A stretch of DNA of 64,000 nt from Chloroflexota bacterium (GTDB lineage: Bacteria > Chloroflexota > Anaerolineae > Aggregatilineales > Ch27), in contig JAIOAT010000003.1 in NCBI GenBank assembly GCA_019873685.1, positions 1,207-65,206 of the forward strand, written 5' to 3'. This document shows positions 7,928-60,171 of this stretch, piece after piece. The notes under the pieces are model-generated. The model was given only the letters and a program-made list of their open reading frames with translations, was not told the origin of the DNA and ran no database searches. Position 1 is the stretch's first letter. Every line of letters starts with the position of its first letter. Position numbers and translations under genes: made by a program.

Positions 7928-7998
7928 CTCTTCTACCTCCAGCTTTCTATGGGATCACTGACCTGAGCAAAGACAATCATCTCGCTGAGCCGCCAGTT

Positions 7999-8976
7999 TC
8001 ACCTCCTTTCATTTGCTGTGTCAGTTGTGTAGGTAAACCGTATCAGGATATCCTGCGGGTAATTGCCAAACTTCCTGCCAAATAAGTTGAGACCGCCAAC
8101 ATTCAGGGCATCGTTCTTGATGCCCAACCGCATGGCAATAAAACTGTTCTGCCCAAGATTCAGGTGCTTGAGCGTCACATCGGAAACCTGGATGCCGTCC
8201 ACATACGTCCCATGACCGGTGATTTTCCACACCTTCAGAAGGCCATACTGCGTGCTCCAGTCCTCCCACCAGGCCGGGGTCAAATTGCCCCGCAACCCGC
8301 CGAAATCGCCGGGGCTGGTCCATGTGCCAATCTCCACGCCGTTGATCCACATGGTGATGTCAGAAGGCCAGTTATCGTTATACAGTGGCGCCTCTGAACA
8401 CAGTTCCAGGCTAATCTGCAGGAATTCGAGCACTGCGCCTTGCGGCGGTCGATTGGGAAAGCGATACTCCACGTAGCCCTGCTTGAACCAGAGCAACTGG
8501 GCGTAGATGTGGTCAGGATCATAGAAGCTGGTCGGATCATCGAACTGACCGATCACGCCGGATTCGCTGGCCAGGCCGCACGGGTGTTGCACCTGACAGT
8601 CGGTATAGGCGCCAATAGGCATCTCAAGCTCGATCGTGTTCTGCGTGTGCTCCTTGGCCTTGGGCAAGGTCACCACAAGCTGATCACAGATGCGGTAACA
8701 TACCTTCTGCAACCCCCGGCTGGCCGGGGTCAGTTCGGTGTGGATCAAGCCAGCCCGTTCCAGCACGTTAATGTGCATCGTGACGGTTGACGTTGGCATA
8801 TCCAGCGCCTCGGCGATCTCGTTGATGCTGCAGTTACGATTGGTCAGAAGACGCAGGATTTGCAGCCGGGGTTCGGAACCCAATGCCTTGAAAAGCACGG
8901 CTCCACTGGCAGCGTCCTGATCAAGTTGTACAACATGCACACTGCCGATGGACTTGAGGTGTTTTCTGGCGGTCAC
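7999..8976 (-). CDS. ArsR-family regulator with C-terminal ligand-binding domain (COG4189-like)
   Basis: KALGSEPRLQILRLL HTH; CGLASE, SLELCSEAP, WTSPGDFG, TQYGLLK motifs. Confidence 0.88.
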   Translation of the reverse strand: MTARKHLKSIGSVHVVQLDQDAASGAVLFKALGSEPRLQILRLLTNRNCSINEIAEALDMPTSTVTMHINVLERAGLIHTELTPASRGLQKVCYRICDQLVVTLPKAKEHTQNTIELEMPIGAYTDCQVQHPCGLASESGVIGQFDDPTSFYDPDHIYAQLLWFKQGYVEYRFPNRPPQGAVLEFLQISLELCSEAPLYNDNWPSDITMWINGVEIGTWTSPGDFGGLRGNLTPAWWEDWSTQYGLLKVWKITGHGTYVDGIQVSDVTLKHLNLGQNSFIAMRLGIKNDALNVGGLNLFGRKFGNYPQDILIRFTYTTDTANERR

Positions 8977-9122
8977 GGTATTCTTTCCGTGCTATCCCTG
9001 CTTACACGAAACGCTTTTTCGCCAGCGCCCATCACTGAAACAATTAATCCTGCTTCATTCTGGGGTAGTTCGACAAAGCAGTGGTAAAATGGTTGGCAAT
9101 TGCTACAACTGAAACAGGAAAA

Positions 9123-9167
9123 CATACTTTATAATTTCAAAGTATGGTCAATCCACAGTTTTGTCAA
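9123..9167 (-). promoter_or_regulatory. Sigma70-type promoter with overlapping palindromic operator
   Basis: Minus strand TTGACA (9167-9162)-N17-TACTTT (9144-9139); inverted repeat CATACTTT-N8-AAAGTATG at 9123-9146. Confidence 0.6.
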
Positions 9168-9319
9168 GCACTTAACAGCGGGTTGGGTTACTTCACACAA
9201 TATTAGGCACATTGACCAAATTGCTATTAACAGATCGAATCCTGTTTGTTATGTACTCTACACAATACCGCCAATCGTTTAACCTGCCGCTTATCCCGGC
9301 GGCTAGAAGGAGCTTGAGC

Positions 9320-11128
9320 ATGATGAAACGCCTTGCCACTGTCCTCACCTGTCTGACTGCCCTGGCGGGACTTTCCGCCCTGGTGCCTGCCCGGGCCCAG
9401 GGCGATGGGCTGACCACCCGCTGGGCGCGGGATGTCTCCCCGGACAACGTCCACCCGGAATACCCCCGCCCGCAACTCGTGCGGGAAGCCTGGCTCAACC
9501 TGAATGGCCTGTGGGACTACGCCCTGACCGCCCGGATCGCCGAAGCGCCGCAGGAGTATCGCGGCCAGATTCTGGTGCCTTTCCCGGTGGAATCGGAGCT
9601 ATCCGGCGTTGGGATGACACTGAGCGTCAACAACCAGTTGTGGTACCGACGCACCTTTGACGTGCCCGCCGCCTGGGCCGGGCAGCGGGTCCTGCTTCAC
9701 TTTGGCGCGGTGGACTGGGAGACCGTGGTCTGGGTCAACGGCGTTGAAGTCGGTACGCACCAGGGAGGCTACGACTCGTTCACGTTTGACATCACCGATG
9801 CCCTCAAACCAGAAGGCCCCCAGGAGATTCTGGTCGCCGTCTGGGACCCCACTGACATCGGCCTGCAACCACGGGGCAAGCAGGTCGCCCGTCCCCAGGG
9901 CATCTGGTACACACCCACCACCGGCATCTGGCAAACGGTCTGGTTGGAACCCGTCCCCGCCACATACATCGCCGGTCTGAAGATGACGCCCGACATTGAC
10001 CGGGGCGTGCTTGCCTTGCAGACGACGCTTTCGGGCGCTGCGGAGACGCTGGCGATTGAGGCTATCGCCCGCGACGGAGACGCCATCGTCGCTGAGGCCA
10101 AGGGGGCGGCAGATCAAACGCTCGAACTGACCATCTCCAACCCCCGACTGTGGTCACCCGAATCCCCGCATCTCTACGACCTTGAGGTCAGGCTGCTACA
10201 GGACGGTCAGGTCGTGGACCGCGTCGGCAGCTACTTTGGCCTGCGCAAGATCGCACTGGGTACGGACGACAATGGTGTGGTGCGCCTGTACCTCAATAAC
10301 GCGCCTCTGTTCCACTTCGGTCTGCTGGATCAGGGCTTCTGGCCAGACGGCCTCTATACCGCCCCTACTGATGAGGCGCTGCGCTACGACATCGAGATCA
10401 CCCGTCAGCTTGGCTTCAATACCATCCGCAAGCACGTCAAGGTTGAGCCTGAGCGCTGGTACTACTGGGCGGACAAGCTGGGCGTGCTGGTCTGGCAGGA
10501 TATGCCCAGCGGCGACGCCTTTGTCCAGCCCAACAACGGCGAGATCACCCGCCTGCCAGTTTCCGCCCAGCAGTTCGAGGTGGAACTTGCCCGACTGGTA
10601 GAGACGCACTACAACCACCCGTCGATCGTCATGTGGGTGCTCTTCAACGAGGGCTGGGGACAGTACGACACCGTGCGTCTGACCCAGTGGCTTGAGAACG
10701 CTGATCCGACCCGGCTGGTCAACAGCGCCAGCGGCTGGAACGATTTCGGCGTCGGCGATGTCTACGACATTCACAGCTATCCGGGCCCGGATATGCCGCC
10801 CCTCTCCGCCGATCGGGCGGCAGTGCTGGGCGAATTCGGCGGTCTGGGGTTGCCCGTTGCGGGGCATCTGTGGCAGGAATATGGCGCCTGGGGCTACCGC
10901 GCCTTTGAGGATGCTGCAGCGCTGCAGGAAGCCTACAGCGGCCTGTTGACCCGTCTGGCCGATCTGCAGGAGCGTGGCCTGGCGGCGGCCATCTACACCC
11001 AGACCACCGACGTGGAAATCGAGGTCAACGGTATCATGACCTATGACCGCGCGGTGATCAAAATGGACGCGGACTGGCTGAGGGAGGCCAACCGGCGTAT
11101 CATCCCGCCTGTGGCGGACGCATCCTGA
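9320..11128 (+). CDS. Secreted glycoside hydrolase family 2
   Basis: AGAAGGAG RBS; signal peptide PARA-Q; EYPRPQ, LHFGAVD, LDQGFWPDG, GFNTIRKHVK, WVLFNEGWGQ, GEFGG. Confidence 0.92.
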   Translation: MMKRLATVLTCLTALAGLSALVPARAQGDGLTTRWARDVSPDNVHPEYPRPQLVREAWLNLNGLWDYALTARIAEAPQEYRGQILVPFPVESELSGVGMTLSVNNQLWYRRTFDVPAAWAGQRVLLHFGAVDWETVVWVNGVEVGTHQGGYDSFTFDITDALKPEGPQEILVAVWDPTDIGLQPRGKQVARPQGIWYTPTTGIWQTVWLEPVPATYIAGLKMTPDIDRGVLALQTTLSGAAETLAIEAIARDGDAIVAEAKGAADQTLELTISNPRLWSPESPHLYDLEVRLLQDGQVVDRVGSYFGLRKIALGTDDNGVVRLYLNNAPLFHFGLLDQGFWPDGLYTAPTDEALRYDIEITRQLGFNTIRKHVKVEPERWYYWADKLGVLVWQDMPSGDAFVQPNNGEITRLPVSAQQFEVELARLVETHYNHPSIVMWVLFNEGWGQYDTVRLTQWLENADPTRLVNSASGWNDFGVGDVYDIHSYPGPDMPPLSADRAAVLGEFGGLGLPVAGHLWQEYGAWGYRAFEDAAALQEAYSGLLTRLADLQERGLAAAIYTQTTDVEIEVNGIMTYDRAVIKMDADWLREANRRIIPPVADAS

Positions 11129-14680: not shown

Positions 14681-14829
14681 CTTTTCCAGGCGGGTAAGCA
14701 AGAAAGGAGGCTACCCTCAGCAGTCAGGACAGAGTCGCTTTCCAGCCAATGTCGTGAGCGTTATGCGCAGCAGTACTCCGCCAAGAGGCATAACAAAGCG
14801 TTCTTCCCCCGAATAAGGAGGCGTTTTCA

Positions 14830-16182
14830 ATGTTCGGCTCCAAATCAAGAACCGTTCTGGCCGTGCTGGCGATCATCCTGGTCGCTGTAGCGTTCCCGAT
14901 TCAGCGGACTTCCCAGGCTCAGGGCGAAGTCACCGGCACGTTGAATGTGATGGGCTTCAGCCTGCCTGATGAGATCGCTACTGTGCGCGTCGATCAGTTC
15001 AAGGCGGCTTATCCTGATGTGACGGTGAACATCACCGAAGGCGCCCTGGATGAGCAGCAGTTCCTCACGGCTATCGCCAGCGGCAACGCCCCGGATGTGG
15101 TCTACATGGGCCGCGACGTCCTCAGCTCCTACGCTGTCCGCGGCGCGATTGTCCCGCTGACCGAGTGCATCGACAGCATGGGCATCGACATGAGCCAGTA
15201 CCGCGAGGCGGCGGTCGCCCAGGTCACCGTTAACGGTGAAGTCTACGGCATCCCGGAGTTCTTCAACAGCATCATGCTCTTCATCAACAACAAGGCGCTG
15301 GCGGATGCTGGCCTGACGCTGGATGACGTTGATGTCTCCGATTGGGACAAGGTCGCCGAGATCAATCAGGCCCTGACCCGCATTGAAGACGGCACGTTGA
15401 CCCGCATCGGCTTTGACCCCAAGCTGCCTGAATTCCTGCCGCTGTGGGCGAAGGCTAACGGCGTCTCCCTGCTCTCGGAAGACGGCCGCACGGCTCAACT
15501 GAATGACCCGCGCGTGCTGGAGGCCCTGCAGTTCACCGTTGGCCTGCATGAGCCAGCGGGCGGCCGCCAGGCCTTCATGGCCTTCCGCGACACCTGGGAC
15601 TTCTTTGGCGCCCAGAACCAGATGGTCTCCGACCAGCTCGGTGTCTTCCCGATGGAACAGTGGTACATGAACGTCCTGGCTAACGTCTCGCCGGATGCAG
15701 ACATTACGTTCAAGGCGTTCACCGACCGCGAAGGCAACCCGCTGACCTATGTCACCGGCAACACCTGGGCTATCCCGCGCGGCTCCGCCAACCCTGAGGC
15801 GGCCTGCGCCTGGATGAAGACCATGACCTCGGTCGATACCTGGGTTGCCGCGGCAACCACCCGCGCGCAGATGCGCGCCGAGGCTGGCACGATCAACACC
15901 GGCGTCTACACCGCTAATCGCGCCGCCGACGAAGTGATCTTCTCCGAGATCGTCCTGCCTGCGCTCACTAACGAAACCTTCAAGACCGGCGTGGAAGTCA
16001 TCCTGTCCGTCCAGGACAGCGCCTACGCCATCCCCGCCAACCCCGCCGCTGCTGAGTTCAAGCAGGCCTGGCAGGATGCCGTCAACCGTGTCCTGAACGG
16101 CGAACAGACGGCGGAAGAAGCGCTGGCCCAGGCGCAGGAAGAAGCTCAGGCCGCGCTTGACGAGGCATGGAGCCAGCAGTAA
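14830..16182 (+). CDS. Sugar ABC transporter solute-binding protein
   Basis: TAAGGAGG RBS; signal peptide SQA-Q; IASGNAPDV, VYGIP. Confidence 0.92.
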   Translation: MFGSKSRTVLAVLAIILVAVAFPIQRTSQAQGEVTGTLNVMGFSLPDEIATVRVDQFKAAYPDVTVNITEGALDEQQFLTAIASGNAPDVVYMGRDVLSSYAVRGAIVPLTECIDSMGIDMSQYREAAVAQVTVNGEVYGIPEFFNSIMLFINNKALADAGLTLDDVDVSDWDKVAEINQALTRIEDGTLTRIGFDPKLPEFLPLWAKANGVSLLSEDGRTAQLNDPRVLEALQFTVGLHEPAGGRQAFMAFRDTWDFFGAQNQMVSDQLGVFPMEQWYMNVLANVSPDADITFKAFTDREGNPLTYVTGNTWAIPRGSANPEAACAWMKTMTSVDTWVAAATTRAQMRAEAGTINTGVYTANRAADEVIFSEIVLPALTNETFKTGVEVILSVQDSAYAIPANPAAAEFKQAWQDAVNRVLNGEQTAEEALAQAQEEAQAALDEAWSQQ

Positions 16183-18214: not shown

Positions 18215-19936
18215 GTGGAAGCCCTGAACCAGAACAACGAGAAGCTCCTCCGGGCGGAGCGCTACTGCCTGCGCCTGCCCGCTGACCGGCCGTTTGTGGT
18301 GCTGGAAAGTCCGCAGGGTGAACGCCTGGTTGAGCTATTCCCCTTTTCCAGCATCCATCCCCTAAACGGACGTGACGATACTTATCAGACCAGCCCCTGG
18401 GAGTTCCAGCCGGCAGCGGACGGCTACACGCTCTCCTGCACGGCCAGGAGCACCGCCTGGGCCGCCAAGACTTACCGTTTCCGTTGCACGCCGCGTCGCC
18501 TGACCTATGAGATCGAAGTAGAGGGCGAAGGTGTGTTGACGGAAGCGCTTTACTTCGGAGGCTACTACGCGGAGAGCCTGCGCTGGGGGAGCGGTTTCTT
18601 CTGGTCAGGGCAGCGCTTCAGCCAGGTCTTCAACCCTGAGCCAAACATCCCGGAAATCTTCCACCACCACCCTGCCAGCCATACGCGCATCGACATGACC
18701 GGCGTGCCCATCCCGGCCAGAGGCGACTGGTTTTTTACCCCACCGCCCTTCTGTTTCGCCGCGCAGACCGCCGACGGCTGGCTGGCGCTGGGCGTGGAAG
18801 CCGCGCCGGGGGCTAACACTTTCACGGAGTATCACTACTGCGGCAGCGAGGGGGCTTTCTATCTGGCGCTCACCTATGAGGGATACACGACCGTCCACGG
18901 GCGGATGACGCTGCCAGCCATCGGCTTTGACTTCGCGCCGGATGAATACACCGCCCTGAGCGCGCATGTGGCCGCACTGCGGGCTGCCGAGCTGGTCCCC
19001 ATTCCCCGCCGGGAAACAACGCCGGACTGGTGGCAGGCCCCGATCTTCTGCGGCTGGGGGGCGCAGTGCCACATCGCCAGCCGGGAAGGTGGCCGCGCGC
19101 CGGAATACGCCCGCCAGAGTCTGTACGAGGACTTCCTTGCCACGCTGGAAGCGCACGATCTCCAGCCCGGCATCATCGTCCTGGACGACAAATGGCAGGC
19201 CGCCTATGGCGACAGCCGGGCAGACACCGCCAGATGGCCCGACCTGCCGGGATTCATTGCCGGGCAACACCGGCGGGGGCGGCGGGTGCTGTTGTGGTTC
19301 AAAGCCTGGGACCCGGAAGGTGTGCCGGTCGAAGAATGCATCACCCATCCGGGTGGTTTGCCGGTAGCGGTCGACCCCACTCACCCCGCCTATGAGCGCC
19401 GCCTGCGCGCCGCCATCCGCCGGATGCTTTCGCCAGCAGGCTACGACGCCGACGGCTTCAAAATCGACTTTACGGCGCGTATCCCCAGCGGGCCGGGATT
19501 GCGCAGTCACCGGCCGGTCTGGGGTCTGGAACTGATGCGCCATTACCTGAGCATCATCTATGACGAAGCGAAGCAGGCCAAGCCTGACGCCCTGATCATG
19601 ACCCACACCGCCCACTCTTACCTGGCTGATGTGCTGGACATGATCCGCCTGAACGACATCAATATCGGCCAGGATGTTCTGCGGGCCATGACGCACCGGG
19701 CCAGGGTCGCCCGCCTGGCCTGCCCCGAAGCGATCATCGATACCGACAACTGGCCGATTACCGATAAGGCAACCTGGCGGGCATATGTGGCGCTTCAGCC
19801 AGAGTTAGGCGTGCCTTCGCTGTACTACGCCACCCACATCGACGCCACCGGCGAGCCGCTGACCGATGATGATTACCGCCTGATCCGCGACAGCTGGGCG
19901 CGCTGGCGCGCCCGCACCGCAGGGAGAGAATCCTGA
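18215..19936 (+). CDS. Putative clan GH-D glycoside hydrolase (GH31/GH36-like TIM barrel)
   Basis: FCGWG, VLDDKWQ, DGFKIDF (nucleophile-like), IRLND (acid/base-like); GTG start inferred from GAGGG RBS. Confidence 0.7.
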   Translation: MEALNQNNEKLLRAERYCLRLPADRPFVVLESPQGERLVELFPFSSIHPLNGRDDTYQTSPWEFQPAADGYTLSCTARSTAWAAKTYRFRCTPRRLTYEIEVEGEGVLTEALYFGGYYAESLRWGSGFFWSGQRFSQVFNPEPNIPEIFHHHPASHTRIDMTGVPIPARGDWFFTPPPFCFAAQTADGWLALGVEAAPGANTFTEYHYCGSEGAFYLALTYEGYTTVHGRMTLPAIGFDFAPDEYTALSAHVAALRAAELVPIPRRETTPDWWQAPIFCGWGAQCHIASREGGRAPEYARQSLYEDFLATLEAHDLQPGIIVLDDKWQAAYGDSRADTARWPDLPGFIAGQHRRGRRVLLWFKAWDPEGVPVEECITHPGGLPVAVDPTHPAYERRLRAAIRRMLSPAGYDADGFKIDFTARIPSGPGLRSHRPVWGLELMRHYLSIIYDEAKQAKPDALIMTHTAHSYLADVLDMIRLNDINIGQDVLRAMTHRARVARLACPEAIIDTDNWPITDKATWRAYVALQPELGVPSLYYATHIDATGEPLTDDDYRLIRDSWARWRARTAGRES

Positions 19937-21993
19937 TGGCCAACGTCACCATCTCCGCAGGCAGGGTCTGGGTGGATGACCAGCCCATCGCCCTGCTGAG
20001 CGGCGAAGTTCACTACTGGCGGCTGGACCCGGCCAACTGGCGGCCTGTCCTGCAGCGGGTCAGGGAGCTTGGCCTGCAGGTGGTCGCCACATACGTCTGC
20101 TGGGATTTTCACGAGCTCGCGCCCGGCTCCTACGATTTCACCGGGCGGACGGATCCGCGCCGCAATCTGGTCGGCTTTCTGCAGCTGCTGGCCGAGGAAA
20201 ACTTCTGGATTATCCTGCGACCGGGGCCGTACATCTACAGCGAATGGTCAAACAACGGCGTGCCCGATCACGCTGCCCGCTATCACCGCCTGCATCCGGC
20301 TTACCTGGCCCTGGCGGAGCACTACATGGCTGCCGTCACCGAGGTCGCCCGCCCCTACCTGGCCACACAGGGCGGCCGGATCATCCTCTGGCAGGCCGAT
20401 AACGAGATCGATCCCTGGCCGCAGTTCTACGCTGAACCGCTTGGCCTCGGCCAGCAGAGCGGGCTTTTTCAGGAATACCTGCAGGAACGTTATGGGGACA
20501 TCGCGGCGCTCAACGCTGCCTGGAACACCGCCTATCGTTCCTTTGACGAGGCCCGCGCTGTGACGACCGACGTCTGTGGCGATGATCCTGTTCTGCAGGC
20601 CCGCTATCATGACTACCGCAGCTTTCTTCCCTGGTACACCAGCCGCGCCGCCCGATGGGCGGTGGAAACCTACCGCCGACTGGGAGTCGATGTGCCCATG
20701 CTGCTCAACGCCTATAGCGGCACAGGCGTACAACGCTGGGCCGACTTCGAAGCAATTGCCGGGTTGGCCGGGCCGGATATCTACCCCTCGCGGGAATTCG
20801 CCCTGCGGCACCAGGAACACCGGCACCTGCTGGAAGCCGTTCGCTACACCCGCACCTATTCCAGGCTACCCTACATCCCGGAATTTGAAGCGGGCATCTG
20901 GCACGACTGGCTGGCTGACGTGGGCACGCTGCCGCCCAATCATTACCGCCTGATGGCCCTTTCCGCCCTGCTGGCGGGGGCCGCCGGCTGGAACTGGTAC
21001 ATGCTGGTTAACCGCGATAACTGGACACAGAGTCCGATCAATGAGTGGGGCCGCACCCGTCCCGATCTCTTCGCCGCCTTCCGTCAGATCACCGACCTCT
21101 ACCGGGCCATCGATCCGCCCGCCCTGCTCAAGCAGGTCCACACCGCCGTTACCTTTGACCCGCTCCAGCGCGGCACCGAGCGACCGGGCCGCCTCCTGTT
21201 GCACAGCCTCTATGAGGCGGATATCGACTACGAATTCTGGGATGTCAGCCGCAGCGCAACAGATGCCCCGCTGGCGTTGTACGCGGGCGGCCCCTGGCTT
21301 GACGAAGCCGGGCAGCGGCGGCTGGTTGAGTACATCGAGAGGGGCGGGCATCTGATCTGCCTGGGCGCCTACCCGCACTATGATGAGCATCTGCGTCCCC
21401 TGAATCTGCTGGCGATTCCCGCGCCGGATGGCCTCCTGACTGGCGGGGCGGCCACACTGCGTCTATCCCTGTTCGACGGCCAGATTATCGAAAGCCCCTG
21501 GCTGGGCCACTATGCGACCGTCCCCGGCCAGCCTGTAGTGGCTGAGCGCCTGCCGCTGGTCAGCCTTTCCTCGGAGGAGCTGGCCCTGCAGTTCAACCTG
21601 CAAGCCGGAACGCGCTACACCATCGGCTTCACCCAGGCGCGCGGTCAGGGCCGCCTGACCGTCCTCCATCTGCAGCCGACGCCGGAGACGCTGCTGGCGC
21701 TGCACCGCTGGGCCGGCGTACCGCTTATCTGCCGGTCACGCACACCCGGCGTCAACACAGCGTTCTTCCGCCGCGGCGAAGAGGCGGTTCTGATCGCCGT
21801 CAACCCCGGCGACGAAGCCAAAGCAGCGGAAATTGAGCTGGAACCGGGCCTGCTGGCAGAAGGCCGCTGGCTGATCCAGAATCTGACTGGCGGCCAGTCA
21901 ACCCCGGTGGCGTTCCCGGCGGCCAGTACGCTGACCGTGCAGCTGCCGCGCAAGGATGGCGTCATCCTGCTGATGCGCCGGGCAACTGAGTAG
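19936..21993 (+). CDS. Beta-galactosidase-like glycosidase (GH35 with GH42-like insertion)
   Basis: LSGEVHYWR, LRPGPYIYSEW, QADNEI, YGDIAALNAAWNT, IPEFEAG. Confidence 0.85.
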   Translation: MANVTISAGRVWVDDQPIALLSGEVHYWRLDPANWRPVLQRVRELGLQVVATYVCWDFHELAPGSYDFTGRTDPRRNLVGFLQLLAEENFWIILRPGPYIYSEWSNNGVPDHAARYHRLHPAYLALAEHYMAAVTEVARPYLATQGGRIILWQADNEIDPWPQFYAEPLGLGQQSGLFQEYLQERYGDIAALNAAWNTAYRSFDEARAVTTDVCGDDPVLQARYHDYRSFLPWYTSRAARWAVETYRRLGVDVPMLLNAYSGTGVQRWADFEAIAGLAGPDIYPSREFALRHQEHRHLLEAVRYTRTYSRLPYIPEFEAGIWHDWLADVGTLPPNHYRLMALSALLAGAAGWNWYMLVNRDNWTQSPINEWGRTRPDLFAAFRQITDLYRAIDPPALLKQVHTAVTFDPLQRGTERPGRLLLHSLYEADIDYEFWDVSRSATDAPLALYAGGPWLDEAGQRRLVEYIERGGHLICLGAYPHYDEHLRPLNLLAIPAPDGLLTGGAATLRLSLFDGQIIESPWLGHYATVPGQPVVAERLPLVSLSSEELALQFNLQAGTRYTIGFTQARGQGRLTVLHLQPTPETLLALHRWAGVPLICRSRTPGVNTAFFRRGEEAVLIAVNPGDEAKAAEIELEPGLLAEGRWLIQNLTGGQSTPVAFPAASTLTVQLPRKDGVILLMRRATE

Positions 21994-40679: not shown

Positions 40680-40793
40680 CCAGGCCGTGCTGGCCCGGAG
40701 AAGGAGGTGAGACCCCACACGACACGTCGGATCGCTTTTACGCGCCCTGCCAATACAGGCAGTCAGGATTTACGCTAAAGGAGAGAGAAAAAC

Positions 40794-42056
40794 ATGTCAA
40801 GGAATCGCCTGGTGCTGTTAGCCGTCGCCCTGATGCTGGCGCTGGGCGCACTGCCCTCGCTGGCACAAACCGAGCCGGTGACGATCACGATCTCGACCTG
40901 GGCCGGCGTTGATGAAGCCGCCGAACTGCAGGTCATCCTGGATGAGATCAACGCCAGCCAGAGCGAGTATCAGATCGTCCATTCACCCATCCCCTCGGAC
41001 TACTACACCCAGGTCAAGACACAGATCGCGGGTGGAGTCGGCGCAGACCTGTACTGGATTGACCAGAACAACATGGCCCTGGCCTCGGAAGGCGTCTTCC
41101 TGCCGCTGACCGACTGCCTGGCCGGCGCCGAGCCGGGCACTGCCGGGGACGTCAACGACTACTATCCGGGCATCCTGGCCGTCAACGTCTTTGAAGACGA
41201 AGTCTACGGCCTGCCCTGGATTGCTCAGCCGGTCGTCACCTACTACAACAAGGACCTCTTCGATGCCGCCGGGCTGGATTACCCCACCCCCGATTGGACC
41301 TGGGACGATTTTGTCGCCATGGCCAAGGCGCTGACCCTGGATACCAACGGCGATGGCGAGATCGATCAGTGGGGCTTCACCAACAATGGCTGGCCGCCCC
41401 CCTACATCTTCGTCTGGCAGGCCGGTGGTGAGCTGATCAGCCCCGATTTCACCGAGGCCCCGATCGACAGCCCCGAATTCCTGGAGGGCTTCGAGTTCTA
41501 CCTGAGCACCGCCTATAACCCGGAGATGTCCCCCAGCCGCGAAATCATCGCTGAGCAGGGCTTCGGCGAGATGTTCAAGGCCGGCAAGATCGCCATGTTC
41601 ATGGGCGGCGCTGCGGACGACCTCGACCGCGTTGAGGGCCTGAATGTAGGCGTGGTGCGCGTCCCCGGCCATCCGCGGACCGGCAGCCATGTCACCTTCG
41701 CCTGGAACGCCAGCACCGTTATCTCCGCCAATACTGCCCATCCGGACCTGGCCTGCAAGGCCCTGCTGGCCGTGACCGAGGGCATCCATCACTGGAAGAT
41801 CGTCTCGCCGCGTATCTCGCAGGCCACCGTGGAGCATCTGGTATCCTCGGAGCCGCGCAAGGCTGCCAGCGCCGAAGCGATCGTCGCTGCCGCTCAGGAG
41901 ATGCGCGCGCTGCCTATCTTCGGCAACTACGCTGAGTTTGACTCGATCTTCTGGTCGAAGTTCTGGGGTCCGCTGATCAACAACGAGACCGACCTGACCC
42001 CGGCAGAACTGGCTGCTGAAGTTCGGCCCGAACTGGAAGAAACGTTGCCCGAATAG
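40794..42056 (+). CDS. Sugar ABC transporter solute-binding protein
   Basis: Signal peptide SLA-Q; YGLP, YYNKDLFDAAGL, WTWDDF. Confidence 0.93.
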   Translation: MSRNRLVLLAVALMLALGALPSLAQTEPVTITISTWAGVDEAAELQVILDEINASQSEYQIVHSPIPSDYYTQVKTQIAGGVGADLYWIDQNNMALASEGVFLPLTDCLAGAEPGTAGDVNDYYPGILAVNVFEDEVYGLPWIAQPVVTYYNKDLFDAAGLDYPTPDWTWDDFVAMAKALTLDTNGDGEIDQWGFTNNGWPPPYIFVWQAGGELISPDFTEAPIDSPEFLEGFEFYLSTAYNPEMSPSREIIAEQGFGEMFKAGKIAMFMGGAADDLDRVEGLNVGVVRVPGHPRTGSHVTFAWNASTVISANTAHPDLACKALLAVTEGIHHWKIVSPRISQATVEHLVSSEPRKAASAEAIVAAAQEMRALPIFGNYAEFDSIFWSKFWGPLINNETDLTPAELAAEVRPELEETLPE

Positions 42057-42071: not shown

Positions 42072-42099
42072 CGGAGGCCGCCCGGTCGGGCGGCCTCCG
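42072..42099 (+). terminator. Hairpin 3' of SBP gene
   Basis: CGGAGGCCGCCC-GGTC-GGGCGGCCTCCG. Confidence 0.65.
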
Positions 42100-46618: not shown

Positions 46619-47497
46619 ATGCGTCTGACCAGACACCCGCGCAGCCCGCTGCTTTACCCCAACCCGCTTCACCAGTGGGAAGCGCTGAACGTCTTCAACC
46701 CGTCGGTGATCTACCACAATGGCCTGTTTCATATGCATTACCGCGCCCAGGGCGTGGACTTCATCTCGCGCATCGGTTACGCCGTCAGTACCGACGGCCT
46801 GGAATGGAACCGGCTGGAGAAACCGGTGCTGGCCCCACACCAGGGCCGCGATGATTACCGCGGCGTGGAAGACCCCCGCGTCACACCGCTGGACGGCGCG
46901 TTCTACATGACCTACACCGCTTACGGAGCCAACAGCTTCTTCCCCATGATCGCCCGCTCAGAAAACCTGATCACGTGGGAAGATGTCGGTCCGCTGGAGC
47001 GCGCCGAAAACAAAGATCACGTCCTCTTCCCGGAGAAGATCGGGGGCCGCTACGCCATCCTGCACCGCCGCGCCCCGAACATCTGGATCGCTTTCAGCGA
47101 CGATCTGCGCACTTGGACCGATCACCGCGTGATCATGACCCCGCGCCCGGACAACGACTGGGATTCTGTGCGCATCGGCGCGAACGGCGTGCCAATCAAG
47201 ACCGAACACGGCTGGCTGCTCTTTTACCACGGCTATCCCAGCCCGATCGTCTACCGCCAGTCGGTAGCCCTGCTTGACCTGGAAGACCCCTCGCGGGTCA
47301 TTCACCGCCCGCGCGGTTTCATCATGGAACCGCAGGAGACATGGGAAATCCGTGGCGACGTGCCTAACGTGATCTTCAGTTCCGCCGCCCTTGTCGTCGG
47401 CGACGAACTCTACTTCTACTACGGCGGTTCCGACCGGCTGATCGGGCTAGCCACAGCGCCCTTCGCCGAGGTACTGGATTTCGCCAGGAACGGCTAA
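46619..47497 (+). CDS. GH130 mannoside phosphorylase
   Basis: [45 protein letters not shown]. Confidence 0.92.
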
Positions 47498-53867: not shown

Positions 53868-53871
53868 GGTG

Positions 53872-55014
53872 CTATCCCGCCTCCGCACGACCGATGATCA
53901 GGTCACGGCTCTGGTCAATCAGCACGGCCAGAATGACAATCACGCCCACCACGATGTACTGCCAGTAGGGCTGCACATTGAGCATGACCAGCCCGGTCTG
54001 CAGCACGGCGATGATCAGGGCGCCAATTACCGTCCCGCTGATGCGCCCCTCCCCGCCGAACATGCTCACCCCGCCAATCACCACCGCCGCAATCGACGAG
54101 AGCAACAGCGTCTCGCCAGCAATGGCCGAGCCGCCATTGAAGCGGGTGGTATGCAGGAAACCGGCCACGCCAGTCGTCAGGCCAGAGAGCATGTACAGCA
54201 GGATGGTGTGGCGATCCACCCGCACACCGGCGCGGATAGCCGACTCGCGGTTGCCGCCGATGGCGTAGGTGTGCCGCCCGAACTGTGTCAGGTGCAGCAG
54301 ATACATCGTCCCGAAGACCAGGATGGCGGCGACCACCACCGGCCAGGGGAAGATCCGCTCCAGCACGCGCAACTGCTCAGTGGCAACTTCCGGTCGCTGC
54401 AGGAAGAAGAGGCCGCCGCCGTCCCCCGGCATCCAGTACATCAGGGCCTCGTTGCCAAAGTCGCGGACAATCCGCGGCTGGCCCCCGACAACGTTTGCCC
54501 CGGAGAGCAGAAAGCCGATGCCGCGGGCGATGAAAGACATGCCCAGCGTCACAATAAATGGCGGGACGCGCAGCTTGGCAATGACCAGGCCGTTGACCAG
54601 GCCGGTGAGCACCGCCACACCAACCGCCAGGACAAACCCGATGAGCAGCATGATCGGCTCAGCAATACCGCCGGCAGCCGCCAGATCGCGCATGGCCATC
54701 GCCGCCACCACCGACGAGAGTCCCATCACCCAGCCCACCGACAGGTCGATGCCTCCGGCGATAATCACAAACGTCTGGCCGAGGCCCATCAGCAAGATGG
54801 GGGTAATCGCCACCAGGATGTTCTGCGAGTTGCGCAGCGAGAGGAAGTTCACACCCTGTGAAGTGCTCGCTGAGATCGTGAAGAACACGATCAACAGCGC
54901 CAGGAAAACCCACCCCCAGACCCGGCTCAGCATCAGGATGGCCCGCTGCTGGCCGGATAGCCGCTTGCCCCCAACCGGCTGGGAGGTGGCGCCGGTCTGA
55001 CTGTCCACCGCCAT
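53872..55014 (-). CDS. Monosaccharide ABC transporter permease (RbsC-like)
   Basis: GGIDLSVG, VPPFIVTLG, IAAVVIGG. Confidence 0.94.
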   Translation of the reverse strand: MAVDSQTGATSQPVGGKRLSGQQRAILMLSRVWGWVFLALLIVFFTISASTSQGVNFLSLRNSQNILVAITPILLMGLGQTFVIIAGGIDLSVGWVMGLSSVVAAMAMRDLAAAGGIAEPIMLLIGFVLAVGVAVLTGLVNGLVIAKLRVPPFIVTLGMSFIARGIGFLLSGANVVGGQPRIVRDFGNEALMYWMPGDGGGLFFLQRPEVATEQLRVLERIFPWPVVVAAILVFGTMYLLHLTQFGRHTYAIGGNRESAIRAGVRVDRHTILLYMLSGLTTGVAGFLHTTRFNGGSAIAGETLLLSSIAAVVIGGVSMFGGEGRISGTVIGALIIAVLQTGLVMLNVQPYWQYIVVGVIVILAVLIDQSRDLIIGRAEAG

Positions 55015-55052
55015 TGGCTTTCTCTCCTTAAATTCGGGACGTTACACAGCAG

Positions 55053-55086
55053 GGCATGAGGGCGCTCCGAGGAACGCCCTCATGCC
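55053..55086 (-). terminator. Hairpin 3' of SBP gene
   Basis: GGCATGAGGGCG / CGCCCTCATGCC 12-bp stem. Confidence 0.65.
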
Positions 55087-55104
55087 TGAAACTACCCTAT
55101 GCGT

Positions 55105-56076
55105 TTACGGGACCTGATAGATGAAGCGCGCCACCTCAGGATCGTCGACGTTTTCCGCGGTGATGACCGCGTACCCGGTGGTGACGCGAGGCGGCAGGCT
55201 GGTCACGCCGCGCCAGTCGGCCATGGCAAAGGCGACGGCCAGGTAGCCCATGTCATAGGGCTTCTGGGCGATCACCAGCGTCACGACGCCCGCGCGGAGC
55301 TGCTCGATGGCGAACTGGGTCGCATCGAAAGCGATAACCTGAACCTGCCCGCCCAGCCCGGCGCTGATCACAGCGTTACCGGCGCCCTGGGCGCTGAACA
55401 CGTTCACGCCAAAGATGCCAGCCAGGTCGGGTTCGCGCTGCAGGACCGCAGCGGTCTGCTCAGCGGCAGTGTTGGCGTCGTCCAGGTTGTAGTCCATGCC
55501 GACCAGTTGCATGCCCGGATAGGCGGCAATGCCCTCAATGAAGCCCTGGCCGCGCTGCTCGGTGGTGCTCACGCCCACGTTCGTGTTCTGAACATAGACC
55601 TTGCCCTGCCCGCCCAGCACTTCGGCCAGCGCCTCAGCCGCGATCCGACCGCCTTCCACGTTGTCCGAGCCGATGTATGACAGCGGGAAGGTCACCGGGC
55701 CATTGACATAGTCGCCATCGCCCAGGAACGTATCGACGGTGATCACCTTGATGCCAGCGTCAACAGCCGCCTGCAGCGGGGCGATCATCTGTTCCTTGTC
55801 GGTCGGCGCAATGATGAGGTAGTCCAGGTCGCCACGGGCAACCATGGCATCCAGGATCGGCGTCTGCTCAGAAGGACCCCAGTCCTGCGGGAACTGCGTG
55901 ACCACTTCCAGACCGAAGTCGGCAACCGCCTGGTTGACGCCCAGCTCCATCACCTCATAGAAGGGGTCTACCACACCCGGCAGGAAGCCGATCTTGGGCA
56001 GTTCGGACTGCGCGGTCGTCGGCGCAAGGGCCAGCGCCAGCATGGCGATGACCATCAGAATCGAGAACTTCTTCAT
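55105..56076 (-). CDS. Monosaccharide ABC solute-binding protein (RbsB-like)
   Basis: GAGGAGAAGGAG RBS before MKKFSIL; signal peptide TTA-Q; YIGSDNVEGG, IAFD, IAQKP. Confidence 0.93.
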   Translation of the reverse strand: MKKFSILMVIAMLALALAPTTAQSELPKIGFLPGVVDPFYEVMELGVNQAVADFGLEVVTQFPQDWGPSEQTPILDAMVARGDLDYLIIAPTDKEQMIAPLQAAVDAGIKVITVDTFLGDGDYVNGPVTFPLSYIGSDNVEGGRIAAEALAEVLGGQGKVYVQNTNVGVSTTEQRGQGFIEGIAAYPGMQLVGMDYNLDDANTAAEQTAAVLQREPDLAGIFGVNVFSAQGAGNAVISAGLGGQVQVIAFDATQFAIEQLRAGVVTLVIAQKPYDMGYLAVAFAMADWRGVTSLPPRVTTGYAVITAENVDDPEVARFIYQVP

Positions 56077-56510
56077 AACCTGATTCTCCTTCTCCTCATG
56101 ACCTGCTGAAAGCCAATTGAATTCCATTGGACGCTGAGAACAGCATGTAAGTTCTTCAGGCGTCACCTGTCGCAAACGCTCCTTATTCCCCTGGCCTCAC
56201 CCCCTTTCCCGCCTGCGCCCGTTTCCCCCGCGGCAGCCCGCGACGCCAGACCGCTGGCAACACAACCCCCGCCAGGCGGAGGTCGCAGGGTCGCTATGGT
56301 GCTTAGTCACGCGCAGGCTTGTATCACTTGCCTATATCGTACACCAAATTTGCACAGCGCACATACCCCTGCAAGCGACTGCTGGCAACAAATAGCTGGA
56401 ATGGATAATATGGCGGCCCAGCGATGCGGCTGGACGGCGCATGCTGTCCACCGTATCGAACCGGTTTGCTCCGGCCAGCGGCACCGTCTGGCCCGTACAG
56501 GGAGGCACCC

Positions 56511-57425
56511 ATGCCGGTCGAGCATCCTGCTCTGTGCAACCTGAACCCGCTACTGGCAGCAGCAGAGCGCGGCGGCTACGCCGTTGGCGCGTTCTCACCG
56601 CGTTACACGGCCATGATCCAGCCTGTGCTGCAGGTGGGACAGGCCCTCAACTCCCCGCTTATCGTGCAAATCTCGCAGCGCGAGTTAACCCGCTCCCAGA
56701 TCACCCCGGCCCGCTTTGCCAGTGTCTTCTACGCTGAGATGCAGGCCGGGCAGATCACCGTGCCCGTTGCCCTGCATCTGGATCACACCCGCGAGGTCTC
56801 CATCATCGAGGAAGCTATCGCCGCCGGTTTCACCTCGGTCATGATTGACGCTTCCGATCGACCTTTCGCCGAGAACATCGCCATCACCCGGCAGGTCGTG
56901 GCCTACGCTCACCGGCGCGGTGTGTCCGTGGAGGCCGAACTGGGGCGGATCACCACCACCGACTACATGGAGACCGAGGATGACGCCGAGATGTTCACCG
57001 ACCCGGAGGAAGCCGGCGAGTTTGTCGCCGCAACCGGCGTCGACGCGCTGGCGGTCTCGGTGGGCACGGCGCATGGTGTCTATGTCGTCCGCCAGCCTCG
57101 CATCGACTACGACCGGCTGCGGGCCATCCGGGCCAGGACGACAGTGCACCTCGTCCTGCACGGCGGCTCAGGCGTACCCGCCGCCATGGTCGAACAGGCC
57201 ATCAGCCTGCCGGGCGGCGGCGTGAGCAAGGTCAACATCGCCACCGAGCTGGAACTGGCTGCTCTGGGCGCCCTGGGCCGCAGCCACTACCTGCTGGACG
57301 AAGAGATGACCGCGCTCCCGGCGGAAGCCCTGCTTGCCGCCCGTCATGGGGTCAGCAGGGTCGTGCAGGACAAAATCCAGAACTTCCTGCACAGCAACGG
57401 CAAAGCTGGCGAGGTGGCCCGATGA
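56511..57425 (+). CDS. Class II ketose-bisphosphate aldolase
   Basis: LHLDH, SVMIDAS, VEAELG, VGTAHG, VLHGGSG, KVNIATE. Confidence 0.93.
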   Translation: MPVEHPALCNLNPLLAAAERGGYAVGAFSPRYTAMIQPVLQVGQALNSPLIVQISQRELTRSQITPARFASVFYAEMQAGQITVPVALHLDHTREVSIIEEAIAAGFTSVMIDASDRPFAENIAITRQVVAYAHRRGVSVEAELGRITTTDYMETEDDAEMFTDPEEAGEFVAATGVDALAVSVGTAHGVYVVRQPRIDYDRLRAIRARTTVHLVLHGGSGVPAAMVEQAISLPGGGVSKVNIATELELAALGALGRSHYLLDEEMTALPAEALLAARHGVSRVVQDKIQNFLHSNGKAGEVAR

Positions 57426-58057
57426 GCGACGATCTTCTGCATACGCTGGTAAGCCGCTACCCGGAACTGACCGCCTGCCTGCCCGACATACAGGCTGCTT
57501 TTGACCTGTTGCGGGCTACCTTCCAGCGGGGAGGCAAAGTCCTGGTTTGCGGTAACGGCGGCAGCGCCGCCGATAGCGAGCATATCGTGGGCGAGTTGAT
57601 GAAAGGCTACCGCCTGCCCCGCCCGCTGCCAGAAGCGGCTCGCCGCCGGATTCTGGAAGCCTGGCCGGAGGAGGGCGCTTACCTGGCCGATCACCTGCAG
57701 GGCGCGCTGCCCGCCATCTCGCTGGTCAGCCAGAGCGCCCTGCTTTCCGCTTTTGCCAACGACGTCGCCGCCGACATGGTCTACGCCCAGCAGGTTTATG
57801 GCTACGGGCGGCCCGGAGACGCGCTGATCGCGATCAGCACGTCCGGCAACGCCGCCAACGTCCTGCACGCTGTGGAGGTTGGCCGGGCGCTCGGCCTGGG
57901 CACCATCGGCCTGACCGGGCGAGAGGGTGGCCGCCTGAAGGCCGTATGCGACGTCACCATCCGCGTCCCTGCTGACAGCACACCGGCCATCCAGGAACGC
58001 CACCTGCCGATCTACCATACCCTGTGCGCCCTGCTGGAGGAGGCTTTCTTCGCATGA
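57422..58057 (+). CDS. gmhA: SIS-domain phosphoheptose isomerase (GmhA-like)
   Basis: CGNGGSAADSEHIVGEL, ISTSGN, IQERH. Confidence 0.85.
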   Translation: MSDDLLHTLVSRYPELTACLPDIQAAFDLLRATFQRGGKVLVCGNGGSAADSEHIVGELMKGYRLPRPLPEAARRRILEAWPEEGAYLADHLQGALPAISLVSQSALLSAFANDVAADMVYAQQVYGYGRPGDALIAISTSGNAANVLHAVEVGRALGLGTIGLTGREGGRLKAVCDVTIRVPADSTPAIQERHLPIYHTLCALLEEAFFA

Positions 58058-59034
58058 CGGCACTGCTGGCCGGAGTCGATATCGGCGGCACCAAGTGCGC
58101 GGTTGTCCTGGGCCGCCCTACCGGCGACACGATCGACATCCTCGCCAAGACGCGCTTCCCCACCCCGCCCACCTTTGCCCAGACTCTGGAGCAGATCGTG
58201 GCCAGCCTGGAGGCGCTGCTGGCGCAGCACCCACAGGATGCGCTGGCCGCCATTGGCGTGAGTTGCGGCGGGCCGCTGGATAGCCGGGCCGGGCTGGTGC
58301 TTTCCCCGCCGAACCTGCCGGGCTGGGACCGAGTGGATGTGATCGGGCCGCTGCAAGCGCATTTCAGCGCGCCCGCTGCCCTGCAGAATGACGCCAACGC
58401 CTGCGCCCTGGCTGAATGGAAGTGGGGCGCCGGACGCGGCTGCCGCAATATCATCTTCCTGACCTTCGGCACTGGCATGGGCGCCGGGCTGATCCTCGAT
58501 GGACGGCTATACTCCGGGACAAACGATCTGGCAGGCGAAGTCGGTCACATCCGCCTGGCACCGGACGGCCCGATCGGCTATGGCAAGGCCGGATCGTTTG
58601 AAGGATTCTGCAGCGGCGGCGGGATCGCTAACCTGGCCCGGACGCTGGCGGAACAACATCTGGCCGCCGGCTGCCCGCCCGCCTACTGCCCCACCCCGGC
58701 GGATCTGCCCCGCATCACCGCCGAGACGGTCGGGACAGCTGCACAGCACGGCGACCCCACCGCCCTGGAGGTCTTCCGCATCGCCGGGCAGGCGCTGGGG
58801 CGTGGCCTGGCCGTGCTGGTGGATATCCTCAACCCGGAACGGATCATCATCGGCAGCATTTTTGGCCGCCAGCGGTCGCTGCTGGAACCGCCCGCGCTGG
58901 AGACCCTGCGGGCGGAAGCGCTCCCCGGTGCGCTGGCCGTCTGCGCCATTGTCCCCGCCGGGCTGGGCGAGCAGGTTGGCGACTACGCCAGTCTGGCCAT
59001 CGCTTCCGAAGCGCAAGCCTCACCCTCACCTTAA
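58054..59034 (+). CDS. ROK-family sugar kinase
   Basis: GVDIGGTK, NDANACALAE, GTGMGAG, GEVGH. Confidence 0.93.
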   Translation: MTALLAGVDIGGTKCAVVLGRPTGDTIDILAKTRFPTPPTFAQTLEQIVASLEALLAQHPQDALAAIGVSCGGPLDSRAGLVLSPPNLPGWDRVDVIGPLQAHFSAPAALQNDANACALAEWKWGAGRGCRNIIFLTFGTGMGAGLILDGRLYSGTNDLAGEVGHIRLAPDGPIGYGKAGSFEGFCSGGGIANLARTLAEQHLAAGCPPAYCPTPADLPRITAETVGTAAQHGDPTALEVFRIAGQALGRGLAVLVDILNPERIIIGSIFGRQRSLLEPPALETLRAEALPGALAVCAIVPAGLGEQVGDYASLAIASEAQASPSP

Positions 59035-59092
59035 GCCCTCTCTTCCTGCTGGCACGCCCGCGCCGATTGCGATGGGGCGCGGGCGCACCCAA

Positions 59093-59127
59093 CTGGTTCC
59101 AGGCGCACCCGGAACCAGCTTTTTTTT
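59093..59127 (+). terminator. Rho-independent terminator
   Basis: CTGGTTCC / GGAACCAG stem plus T8. Confidence 0.75.
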
Positions 59128-59200
59128 CACCATACGGAAACTTTTGTTGACGGCATTCAAAGGCGAATGCTAAGGTGATAATTGCAGAAGCGTTTTCTGC
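59125..59200 (+). promoter_or_regulatory. Promoter region with candidate operators upstream of IclR
   Basis: TTTCACCATACGGAAA (59125-59140), TTGACG, and palindrome GCAGAA-GCGTT-TTCTGC (59184-59200). Confidence 0.45.
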
Positions 59201-59218
59201 CTGGTGGAAAGAGCACCT

Positions 59219-59983
59219 ATGACCAAGCAAGTTGCCGCTGTCCAGAAGGCCTTCGCGCTGCTCGAACTCCTGGGGCAGGCTGAGCGCGGGCTGGGCATCT
59301 CCGAACTGGCCGAAGCCAGCGGTCTGCCGCTGGGAACGACACATCGCCTGCTGCATACGCTGATTGCGCTGGGCTACATCGAACAGGACCCCGACACGCG
59401 CAAGTACACGCTGGGGCTGCGCTTCCTGCAGTTGCGCGGTCAGGTCATCGGGCGGCTTAACCTGGCTGCCCTGGCTATGCCGCACCTGAAGCTGCTGATG
59501 CACCGTGTCAACGAAACCGTGCATCTGGCCGTCCTGAATGATGGTGAAGTGGTCTATGTCGATCGCGTAGAGGGCCTGCAAACACAGGGGATGTTCACCC
59601 AGATCGGCAAGCGCGGCCCCATTCACTGCACCGCGCTGGGCAAAGTGCTGGCCGCCTTCTCGCCGGAGGAAGTCTGGCGGGAAGCGATTGCCAAGCATGG
59701 CATGCCCCGGCGTACCCCGGCCACCATTGTTGACCCGGAAGTCTTTGCCGCCGAGCTGCAGAAGGTGCGAGAACAGGGCTATGCCATCGACAACGTGGAA
59801 TCGGAGCCGGGCGTGCGCTGTGTGGCTGCACCGATCCGCGACTACAGCGGGCGTGTCGTTGCCGCCGTCAGCATCTCCGGGCCAGCAGCGCGGATGAGGC
59901 CAGCCCGCGACCAGGAACTCAGCATTGCCGTCAGGCGCACGGCACGCGACATCTCCGAACGGCTCGGCTATTCCGACAGCTAG
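59219..59983 (+). CDS. IclR-family transcriptional regulator
   Basis: KAFALLE, THRLLHTL, HCTALGK, GVRCVAAPI, AVSISGP. Confidence 0.95.
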   Translation: MTKQVAAVQKAFALLELLGQAERGLGISELAEASGLPLGTTHRLLHTLIALGYIEQDPDTRKYTLGLRFLQLRGQVIGRLNLAALAMPHLKLLMHRVNETVHLAVLNDGEVVYVDRVEGLQTQGMFTQIGKRGPIHCTALGKVLAAFSPEEVWREAIAKHGMPRRTPATIVDPEVFAAELQKVREQGYAIDNVESEPGVRCVAAPIRDYSGRVVAAVSISGPAARMRPARDQELSIAVRRTARDISERLGYSDS

Positions 59984-60171
59984 GCCGACCGGCCATACCG
60001 CCTGGCGGCAGCCTGCCCGCGTCCTCAAATGGAAAGGAGGTGAATCACCAGAGCGCAACCCCCTTCAGGCTTCTGTGTCCTGTGCTACGCAGGCGCGGGA
60101 TGCGTCCGGGACATACCACCCGCGCAGGCTCGATTGCATAGTGTGTATTCTCAGGTAAAGAGAGGCAAACC

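Follow-up and report, generated by a model that had tools for sequence, protein, structure and literature searches.

Why should genes for the solute-binding proteins (SBPs) of ATP-binding cassette (ABC) importers carry two ribosome-binding sequences, the longer of which appears to start nothing? The question is raised by a stretch of 64,000 nucleotides from a Chloroflexota genome (G000:C3:1207-65206; hereafter the window, meaning the whole stretch analysed), where five SBP genes are each preceded, in addition to their own ribosome-binding site (RBS), by an orphan Shine-Dalgarno (SD) sequence, a long complement of the 3' end of 16S rRNA with no start codon at productive spacing. It is very probable that the element is genuine, is maintained by selection and is recognised through the 16S tail. 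With a probability of about one half, these sites act as start-less SDs of the STAB-SD type, which would stabilise the SBP mRNA by parking ribosomes on it. An earlier sequence-only reading of the window had joined the sites to 3' hairpins in one mRNA-stabilising cassette, and that interpretation is supported in part.

The 3' end of the 16S rRNA of this genome, read directly at the start of contig C1, is ...GGATCACCTCCTTTCT, and the full-length complement of its free tail is AGAAAGGAGGTGATCC; only the last part of the 16S gene is assembled, at that contig start, and the Rfam SSU model gave no match in the genome. Because the rRNA ends in this manner, two of the window 12-mers are perfect complements of the tail. 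One of them, orphan SD 1 (GAAAGGAGGTGA, 7999..8010, minus strand; predicted duplex with the tail -21.0 kcal/mol), lies 71 nt 5' of the start at 7927 of SBP gene 1 (6575..7927, minus strand; SBP_bac_1/8 in Pfam, 450 aa; own RBS GGAGGT at 7935-7940). It overlaps the stop codon of an upstream HTH_5/ArsR-type open reading frame (ORF) at 7999-8976 and is formed, as the sequence-only reading had pointed out, by the final codons of that frame, GAA AGG AGG TGA. The other, orphan SD 5 (GAAAGGAGGTGA again, 60032..60043, plus strand), is placed 48 nt past the stop of an IclR gene and 128 nt 5' of the start at 60172 of SBP gene 5 (60172..61779, plus strand; SBP_bac_5 in Pfam, 535 aa), whose own RBS is weak (GAGG at 60162-60165).

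Orphan SDs 2 and 3 each lie 21 nt past the stop of a LacI-family gene. The former (14701..14710, plus strand; duplex -15.4 kcal/mol) is the exact 10-mer run AGAAAGGAGG, which contains GAAAGGAGG at 14702-14710, and is 119 nt 5' of the start at 14830 of SBP gene 2 (14830..16182, plus strand; SBP_bac_1 in Pfam, 450 aa; own RBS AAGGAGG at 14815-14821). The latter (40701..40710, plus strand; duplex -16.1 kcal/mol) is the exact 10-mer run AAGGAGGTGA within GAAGGAGGTGA at 40700-40710, 83 nt 5' of the start at 40794 of SBP gene 3 (40794..42056, plus strand; SBP_bac_1/8 in Pfam, 420 aa; own RBS AAAGGAG at 40777-40783). Orphan SD 4 (GAAAGGGGGTGA, 56197..56208, minus strand) matches the tail complement at 11 of 12 positions, an A>G change giving one G.U pair, with a duplex of -20.1 kcal/mol and a second AAGGAG at 56178-56183; it lies 120 nt 5' of the start at 56076 of SBP gene 4 (55105..56076, minus strand; Peripla_BP_4 in Pfam, 323 aa, with a signal peptide; own RBS AAGGAG at 56086-56091). 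For this gene the earlier reading had implied a different in-frame ATG, which we correct: translation is assigned to the ATG at 56076, where a typical signal peptide begins, and not to that ATG or to a TTG at 56175.

The five orphan sites are thus present where they had been reported, at 71-128 nt from the SBP starts, and their predicted duplexes with the 16S tail (-15.4 to -21.0 kcal/mol) are stronger than those of the genes' own RBSs (-5.7 to -10.2 kcal/mol). The number of 12-mer matches with at most two mismatches in the window was five against 3.68 expected by chance, so that the count alone is not unusual; all five of these matches are the sites described above, on the sense strand and each ahead of an SBP gene. 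Among the 50 genes called in the window a non-coding orphan site was found before SBP genes only, in agreement with the earlier observation that other intergenic regions lack one. Known leader RNA families gave no match at the Rfam gathering score over the whole window.

The sequence-only reading had proposed that such sites should be enriched before SBP genes throughout the genome, and this is what was observed. The genome (4.12 Mb in 109 contigs, 63% GC, assembly 96.75% complete) was called with our own simple codon-usage caller, which gave 3411 genes covering 88% of it; for one of the encoded proteins the closest named relatives come from Anaerolineae and Chloroflexota metagenome-assembled genomes. 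SBP genes were listed by Pfam over the whole genome, with 35 SBP_bac_1, 32 SBP_bac_8 (overlapping SBP_bac_1), 19 SBP_bac_5, 8 high-scoring Peripla_BP_4 and 1 Peripla_BP_6; 62 of them could be mapped to called genes, one SBP_bac_1 gene on C86 being dropped as the caller took the opposite strand. An exact match of at least 9 nt located 17-250 nt upstream was present before 18 of the 62 SBP genes and 20 of the 3349 others (odds ratio 68, p 8e-23). Most of the matches ahead of non-SBP genes were GAGGTGATC words within the coding sequence of the upstream gene, and when only sites outside the upstream coding sequence were counted over the same range the difference stood at 20/62 against 23/3349 for at least 8 nt (p 4e-25) and at 16/62 against 10/3349 for at least 9 nt (p 8e-23). 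It was likewise seen among genes with at least 100 nt of intergenic space (at least 8 nt; 18/46 SBP genes, 22/1798 others, p 3e-20) and for sites agreeing with the 12-mer at 10 or more of its 12 positions (16/62 and 15/3349, p 4e-21). The reversed and reverse-complement control motifs occurred in none of the 62 SBP leaders. Exact-match criteria were used because the duplex-energy scan with the 16S tail was noisy in this GC-rich genome, a far site with a duplex free energy of -16 kcal/mol or lower being scored before 20/62 SBP genes and 171/3349 others. At a 7-nt threshold 26 SBP genes carry a site, and these come from three unrelated families: SBP_bac_1/8 (18/34), SBP_bac_5 (5/19) and Peripla_BP_4 (3/8).

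These 26 sites do not look like places where translation begins. ATG, GTG or TTG stands 4-12 nt past the core in only three of them, compared with a background of 33% at comparable upstream positions (binomial p 0.011), which bears out the earlier claim that start codons at productive spacing are missing; stop codons in frame between the site and the SBP start occur in 21/26. The bases flanking the GGAGG core follow the 16S tail far more closely at orphan sites (n=25) than at true RBSs (n=555), with A at -2 in 0.96 against 0.23, A at -1 in 0.92 against 0.44, T at +1 in 0.56 against 0.15 and G at +2 in 0.64 against 0.36. An own RBS with a match of at least 9 nt was found for only 17 of the 3411 genes, and therefore the strongest anti-SD complements of this genome are mostly non-initiating sites. 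As for own RBSs in general, 48 of the 62 SBP genes have an exact SD match of at least 5 nt, and 2261 of the 3411 genes called with the crude caller have none of that length within 20 nt before the start.

What is constrained is how far the site lies from the SBP start. All 26 sites are 66-158 nt ahead of that start, whereas their spacing from the upstream gene varies between -32 and +527 nt, and five of the 26 have a divergent upstream neighbour. Similarly, the non-coding sites of at least 8 nt are confined to 66-139 nt before SBP genes and spread over 41-242 nt before other genes. Taking own genome and relatives together, the site-to-start distance has a sharp lower bound at 56-66 nt and a mode of about 75 nt, roughly two ribosome footprints. 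The 26 aligned leaders revealed neither a shared motif outside the orphan site nor a promoter at a fixed distance, and with no conserved column beyond the motif the leaders are therefore not copies of one leader. Perfect inverted repeats (at least 7 nt, spacer at most 12 nt) were found in 0/26, and no secondary structure shared among the leaders was found.

Eleven leaders have an orthologous leader in a genome of the same genus (G001), and over these the site is identical at 102/102 nt compared with 1588/1796 (88%) in the comparison region, which comprises the rest of the leader plus 60 nt upstream (Fisher p 1e-5). Taken by itself, orphan SD 5 is kept at 12/12 positions, its comparison region being 78% identical. 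The 12-mer of orphan SD 1, GAAAGGAGGTGA, is identical in the orthologous leaders of G001, G012 and G003; in the last two, where the proteins share only 51% and 46% identity with SBP 1, it is kept at 157 and 161 nt from the start in leaders that cannot otherwise be aligned. This pattern indicates that the sites are under purifying selection.

The element is also present well beyond the genus. Among SBP_bac_1 loci from other genomes, assessed with the 8-nt criterion, a site was found in 14/27 loci within the same order (8 of 12 genomes having at least one), 9/18 in the class sample (7 of 11 genomes) and 7/15 in the phylum sample (4 of 11 genomes), giving 30/60 loci in other Chloroflexota; locus L134, with 46 nt of upstream sequence only, was left out. 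The control motifs were found in 4/60 of these loci (3 reversed, 1 reverse-complement). In the relatives too a start codon past the site is rare (3/30, p 0.003, background about 30-33%), and the site lies 56-169 nt from the start, most often at around 75 nt. Orphan sites at 66-84 nt are also carried by SBP_bac_5 homologs from other Anaerolineae and from Phototrophicaceae metagenome-assembled genomes. When more loci per genome were taken, some Chloroflexota were motif-positive (G054 8/10, G067 6/10, G078 2/3) and others motif-poor (G069 0/9, G056 0/9, G049 1/9, G072 1/9, G059 0/4); L278, L284 and L285, which are cut by contig ends, were left out of this count. Five genomes from other phyla had a site in 1/30 loci (Devosia 0/7, Nakamurella 0/7, a Lachnospiraceae 0/7, a Halobacteroidaceae 0/2 and a Trueperaceae 1/7), and the feature is therefore neither common to SBP genes at large nor generated by the method.

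The ribonucleases encoded were examined as well. Profile searches of the genome identified RNase J (581 bits against a cut-off of 400), whose presence the sequence-only reading had asked to be confirmed, and RNase Y (666 bits against 454), and no RNase E/G was found in this 96.75% complete assembly. Seventeen other Chloroflexota genomes encode RNase J in 16 cases, RNase Y in 16 and RNase E/G in none. The gene content fits the proposed mechanism, for which this set of RNases is permissive.

The 3' side of the SBP genes was compared in the same way. Four hairpins had been reported after SBP genes in the window, and all four fold as described, with GC-rich stems of 12-18 bp; their folds were scored by minimum free energy (MFE) and z-score, an 81-nt context being used for the one after SBP gene 1. 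The hairpin of SBP gene 1 (6525..6555, minus strand) has a 14-bp stem and no U tract (-37.6 kcal/mol, z -2.3), that of SBP gene 3 (42072..42099, plus strand) a 12-bp perfect stem inside a longer 19-bp helix (-53.8 kcal/mol, z -3.7), that of SBP gene 4 (55053..55086, minus strand) a 15-bp stem (-43.6 kcal/mol, z -4.8) and that of SBP gene 5 (61805..61844, plus strand) an 18-bp stem (-53.2 kcal/mol, z -6.9). SBP gene 2 has no 3' hairpin, and the gap after it is just 26 nt. None of the four hairpins was called as an intrinsic terminator, and the region 55000-62000, which holds the last two, yielded no terminator call at all. Genome-wide, the 95 nt past the stop have a mean MFE of -40.6 kcal/mol for SBP genes and -32.6 kcal/mol for other genes (p 1e-12), and within same-strand gaps of 40-250 nt the values are -41.4 and -31.8 kcal/mol (p 3e-11). 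The stems are GC-rich and are placed 0-60 nt past the SBP stop, ahead of permease genes; they all differ in sequence and form no repeat family, and a U tract is present in some and absent in most. Three of the window hairpins (6525-6555, minus; 42072-42099, plus; 61805-61844, plus) pair a GGAGG in their 5' arm with a CCUCC in the other, which may be a chance effect of GC richness or may have to do with the 5' sites.

The two features are however not coupled. SBP genes with and without a 5' site have 3' folds that do not differ in strength (-42.4 and -39.4 kcal/mol, p 0.27), and the single cassette of 5' site and 3' hairpin that had been put forward is not supported: 5' sites and 3' hairpins are both typical of SBP genes, yet they do not form one linked unit. 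Intercistronic stem-loops of the repetitive extragenic palindromic (REP) type are known to follow the binding-protein genes in malE-malF and hisJ-hisQ. The stem-loops found here resemble these, as well as the cry 3' retroregulator, which is a 3' stem-loop in the account of PMC4113751, in being GC-rich and located 0-60 nt past the SBP stop and before the permeases; unlike the REP elements they belong to no repeated family, mostly lack a U tract and are uncoupled from the 5' site. A stable stem-loop directly past the stop, as expected of 3' stabilisers, follows four SBP genes of the window, and strong 3' folds are enriched after SBP genes in the genome. Such a stabiliser would shield the RNA ahead of it from 3'-to-5' exonucleases and leave more SBP than permease mRNA.

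Among known systems, the 5' sites bear the greatest likeness to the cry3A STAB-SD of Bacillus thuringiensis, whose motif is GAAAGGAGG, with a core shared with the sites here. The cry3A element, an SD-like sequence located near -129, pairs with 16S rRNA and directs no initiation of translation, and the 30S subunit bound to it halts RNase J1 as it degrades the longer transcript from the 5' side (Agaisse and Lereclus 1996; Mathy et al. 2007, as summarised in PMC4113751). STAB-SD-like sequences are noted in other Gram-positive genes in the same source. More generally, according to PMC3997798, whole mRNAs of bacteria that lack RNase E are stabilised by a strong SD close to their 5' end, even one lacking an initiation codon, and the Bacillus subtilis 5' stabilisers include the ermC leader, the strong RBSs of aprE and gsiB, a polypurine sequence and hbs (PMC3997798; PMC5737220). 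At the level of sequence the elements described here have every feature by which the STAB-SD class is recognised: an 8-12 nt complement of the cell's own 16S rRNA located 66-158 nt upstream of 26 SBP genes, flanks that track the tail and, in silico, a site without initiation in the own genome as in the relatives.

The proposed mechanism is as follows. An 8-13 nt complement of the free 16S 3' tail in the SBP leader, 56-170 nt ahead of the real RBS, would pair with a 30S subunit or a 70S ribosome; with no start codon downstream initiation would not follow, and the ribosome would stay parked. There it may block 5'-to-3' decay by RNase J, as at the cry3A STAB-SD and the Bacillus 5' stabilisers, so that the parked ribosome would set a stable 5' end of the SBP message. 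The abundant SBP would thereby be uncoupled from the upstream regulator gene, and the separate 3' stem-loop together with the 5' site would uncouple it from the permease genes that follow. That ribosomes bind, that RNase J is blocked, that the transcript is processed and that SBP output changes is what we infer from the features given above.

The parallel with cry3A lies in the 16S 3'-end complement about 100-130 nt before the start, non-initiating here by sequence alone, in the RNase J of the organism and in the 3' stem-loop on the gene; the cry3A message starts out as a longer transcript, which is trimmed back to the STAB-SD and there acquires its stable 5' end. Unlike the single-gene cry3A case, the Chloroflexota element stands ahead of about a third of the SBP genes from three unrelated families, is kept throughout one Chloroflexota class and in at least two other families, and is often longer (10-13 nt). 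With the B. subtilis stabilisers it shares the principle that a ribosome on a strong SD near the 5' end would shield the mRNA in a cell lacking RNase E; those stabilisers are mostly at or overlapping the real initiation site, whereas the Chloroflexota site is separate and far upstream of the gene's own RBS.

Several observations weigh against the reading of these sites as parked-ribosome stabilisers. The majority of SBP genes lack a site, which is present in roughly a third to two fifths of them, and a few non-SBP genes, such as those for a multihaem cytochrome c, an H+-pyrophosphatase and LeuA, also have an intergenic one. The combination of RNases J and Y without E/G is found as well in Chloroflexota lineages that lack the motif (G069, G056, G049, G072), and the Firmicutes and Actinobacteria outgroups are also without the motif; because the motif-lacking lineages share the same set, the RNases do not explain the distribution of the element. 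The site is not predicted to be more accessible than its surroundings, its unpaired probability being 0.47 against a leader mean of 0.44. Scans for sigma-70-like promoters and for -10 elements gave few hits, which are inconsistently placed: three divergent leaders and C3:101102 have one upstream of the site, two further leaders have one immediately before it, and at C37:3017 it lies on the downstream side. Because these positions vary, some sites may sit only on read-through transcripts. The gene calls, finally, come from a crude caller of our own.

Other explanations were weighed against the same evidence. The sites could be translation enhancers, where a start-less SD captures 30S subunits and raises the supply of ribosomes for the real RBS by standby or hand-over, decay not being primarily changed. 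The 16S complementarity, the lack of start codons and the conservation would be expected under this explanation just as under stabilisation by a parked ribosome, the association with proteins needed in high copy suits it, and in SBP gene 5 the strongest orphan site is followed by an own RBS that is weak (GAGG). We nevertheless hold it unlikely, as 56-170 nt is far for classical standby sites, which adjoin a structured RBS; the real RBS here is no more structured than the leader (unpaired probability 0.43 against 0.44) and 24 of the 26 site-bearing SBP genes already have an own SD of at least 5 nt. The standby site proper, an unstructured dock beside a sequestered RBS, was rejected on this distance and on these unpaired probabilities together with that of the site itself. 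Protection from termination is another conceivable role, in which a ribosome docked early on a long leader hinders the loading of Rho or helps RNA polymerase through. Rho is encoded (620 bits, over the cut-off) and the leaders are long (66-158 nt) and untranslated; a single parked 30S subunit would however cover about 30 nt and leave 60-130 nt of naked leader downstream, and we consider such a shield improbable.

The motif might alternatively be recognised by something other than the ribosome, either a DNA-binding regulator that controls uptake operons for sugars or peptides, or else a small RNA or RNA-binding protein targeting GGA/GGAGG. That it is common to functionally related operons, as a regulon operator would be, speaks for this; the chances are nonetheless slim in view of its strict strand specificity (reverse complement 0/62), its non-palindromic sequence, flanks that on both sides match the 16S tail position for position, over as many as 13 nt, in the own genome and in relatives, and the lack of any other conserved column in the aligned leaders. 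CsrA in particular was ruled against as the ligand, since PF02599 was not found in the genome (96.75% complete). The least probable explanation, which we regard as very remote, is that the sites are ordinary RBSs of unannotated small ORFs encoding leader peptides, or of longer SBP frames that were mis-called. An ATG does follow the non-SBP site before LeuA by 5 nt, and because of it some orphan sites elsewhere may serve leader peptides. Before SBP genes, however, start codons 4-12 nt past the core are below background in both the own genome and the relatives, the three frames opened in the own genome are of 2, 4 and 36 codons, in-frame stops mostly intervene, and the proteins read from the called SBP starts open with a signal peptide. 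A leader-peptide or upstream-ORF RBS, which would show a start at productive spacing and a conserved small ORF, was rejected as a class for these sites on the start-codon counts.

Start-less SD stabilisers are so far known from a handful of Bacillus genes, each studied singly. Full-text literature searches, whose coverage left many subscription papers outside, found no prior description of such an element in Chloroflexi or Anaerolineae or for SBP genes. What is new here is the systematic, lineage-wide use of a STAB-SD-like element tied to one functional class, marking about a third of the ABC-importer binding-protein genes of this genome and conserved across a little-studied phylum whose members are dominant in many sediments, bioreactors and wastewater systems. 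If stabilisation by parked ribosomes is true, protection of mRNA in this way would be an old and widely used design beyond the Firmicutes, would explain how much more binding protein than permease is made from one operon, and would offer a simple signature to predict highly expressed uptake systems in metagenome-assembled genomes. Very strong non-initiating sites may also mislead gene callers and RBS models. A still wider picture, speculative and quite unlikely as it stands, is that Anaerolineae-type Chloroflexota run a lineage-wide post-transcriptional programme in which one functional class of messages is capped at the 5' end by the ribosome itself: free 30S subunits would be parked on SBP leaders by start-less 'super-SD' sites that exceed nearly every real RBS of the genome in length, the SBP message would be cut free of its regulator and permease neighbours, and the life of SBP mRNA, and with it nutrient scavenging, would track the pool of idle subunits and rise as growth slows.

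The orphan SDs ahead of non-SBP genes are located at C6:119086-119096 (multihaem cytochrome c), C1:149347-149355 (H+-pyrophosphatase), about 116 nt before the gene at 20032 on C61 (a secreted 674-aa protein without a Pfam match) and C1:226120-226130 (LeuA). Outside the window, a short-chain dehydrogenase (SDR) gene has a perfect 15-nt complement of the 16S tail 198 nt upstream (C24:25481-25495, minus strand), the longest match in the genome apart from the rRNA gene itself.

As for the neighbourhood, genes for glycoside hydrolases and phosphorylases surround the SBP operons of the window, and because of this we regard the window as a cluster of sugar-uptake loci. The Pfam matches comprise GH130 twice, GH2, GH35/42 and a CBM9 protein, with the genes at 36437-37486 (minus), 44180-46588 (plus), 46619-47497 (plus), 9320-11128 (plus) and 19936-21993 (plus). 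Several Peripla_BP_4 proteins of the genome are 570-700 aa long (C40:25223-26944, C30:30302-32041, C3:115151-117193, which is outside the window, and C5:103316-105421), and three of these long proteins contain two Peripla_BP_4 domains in tandem.

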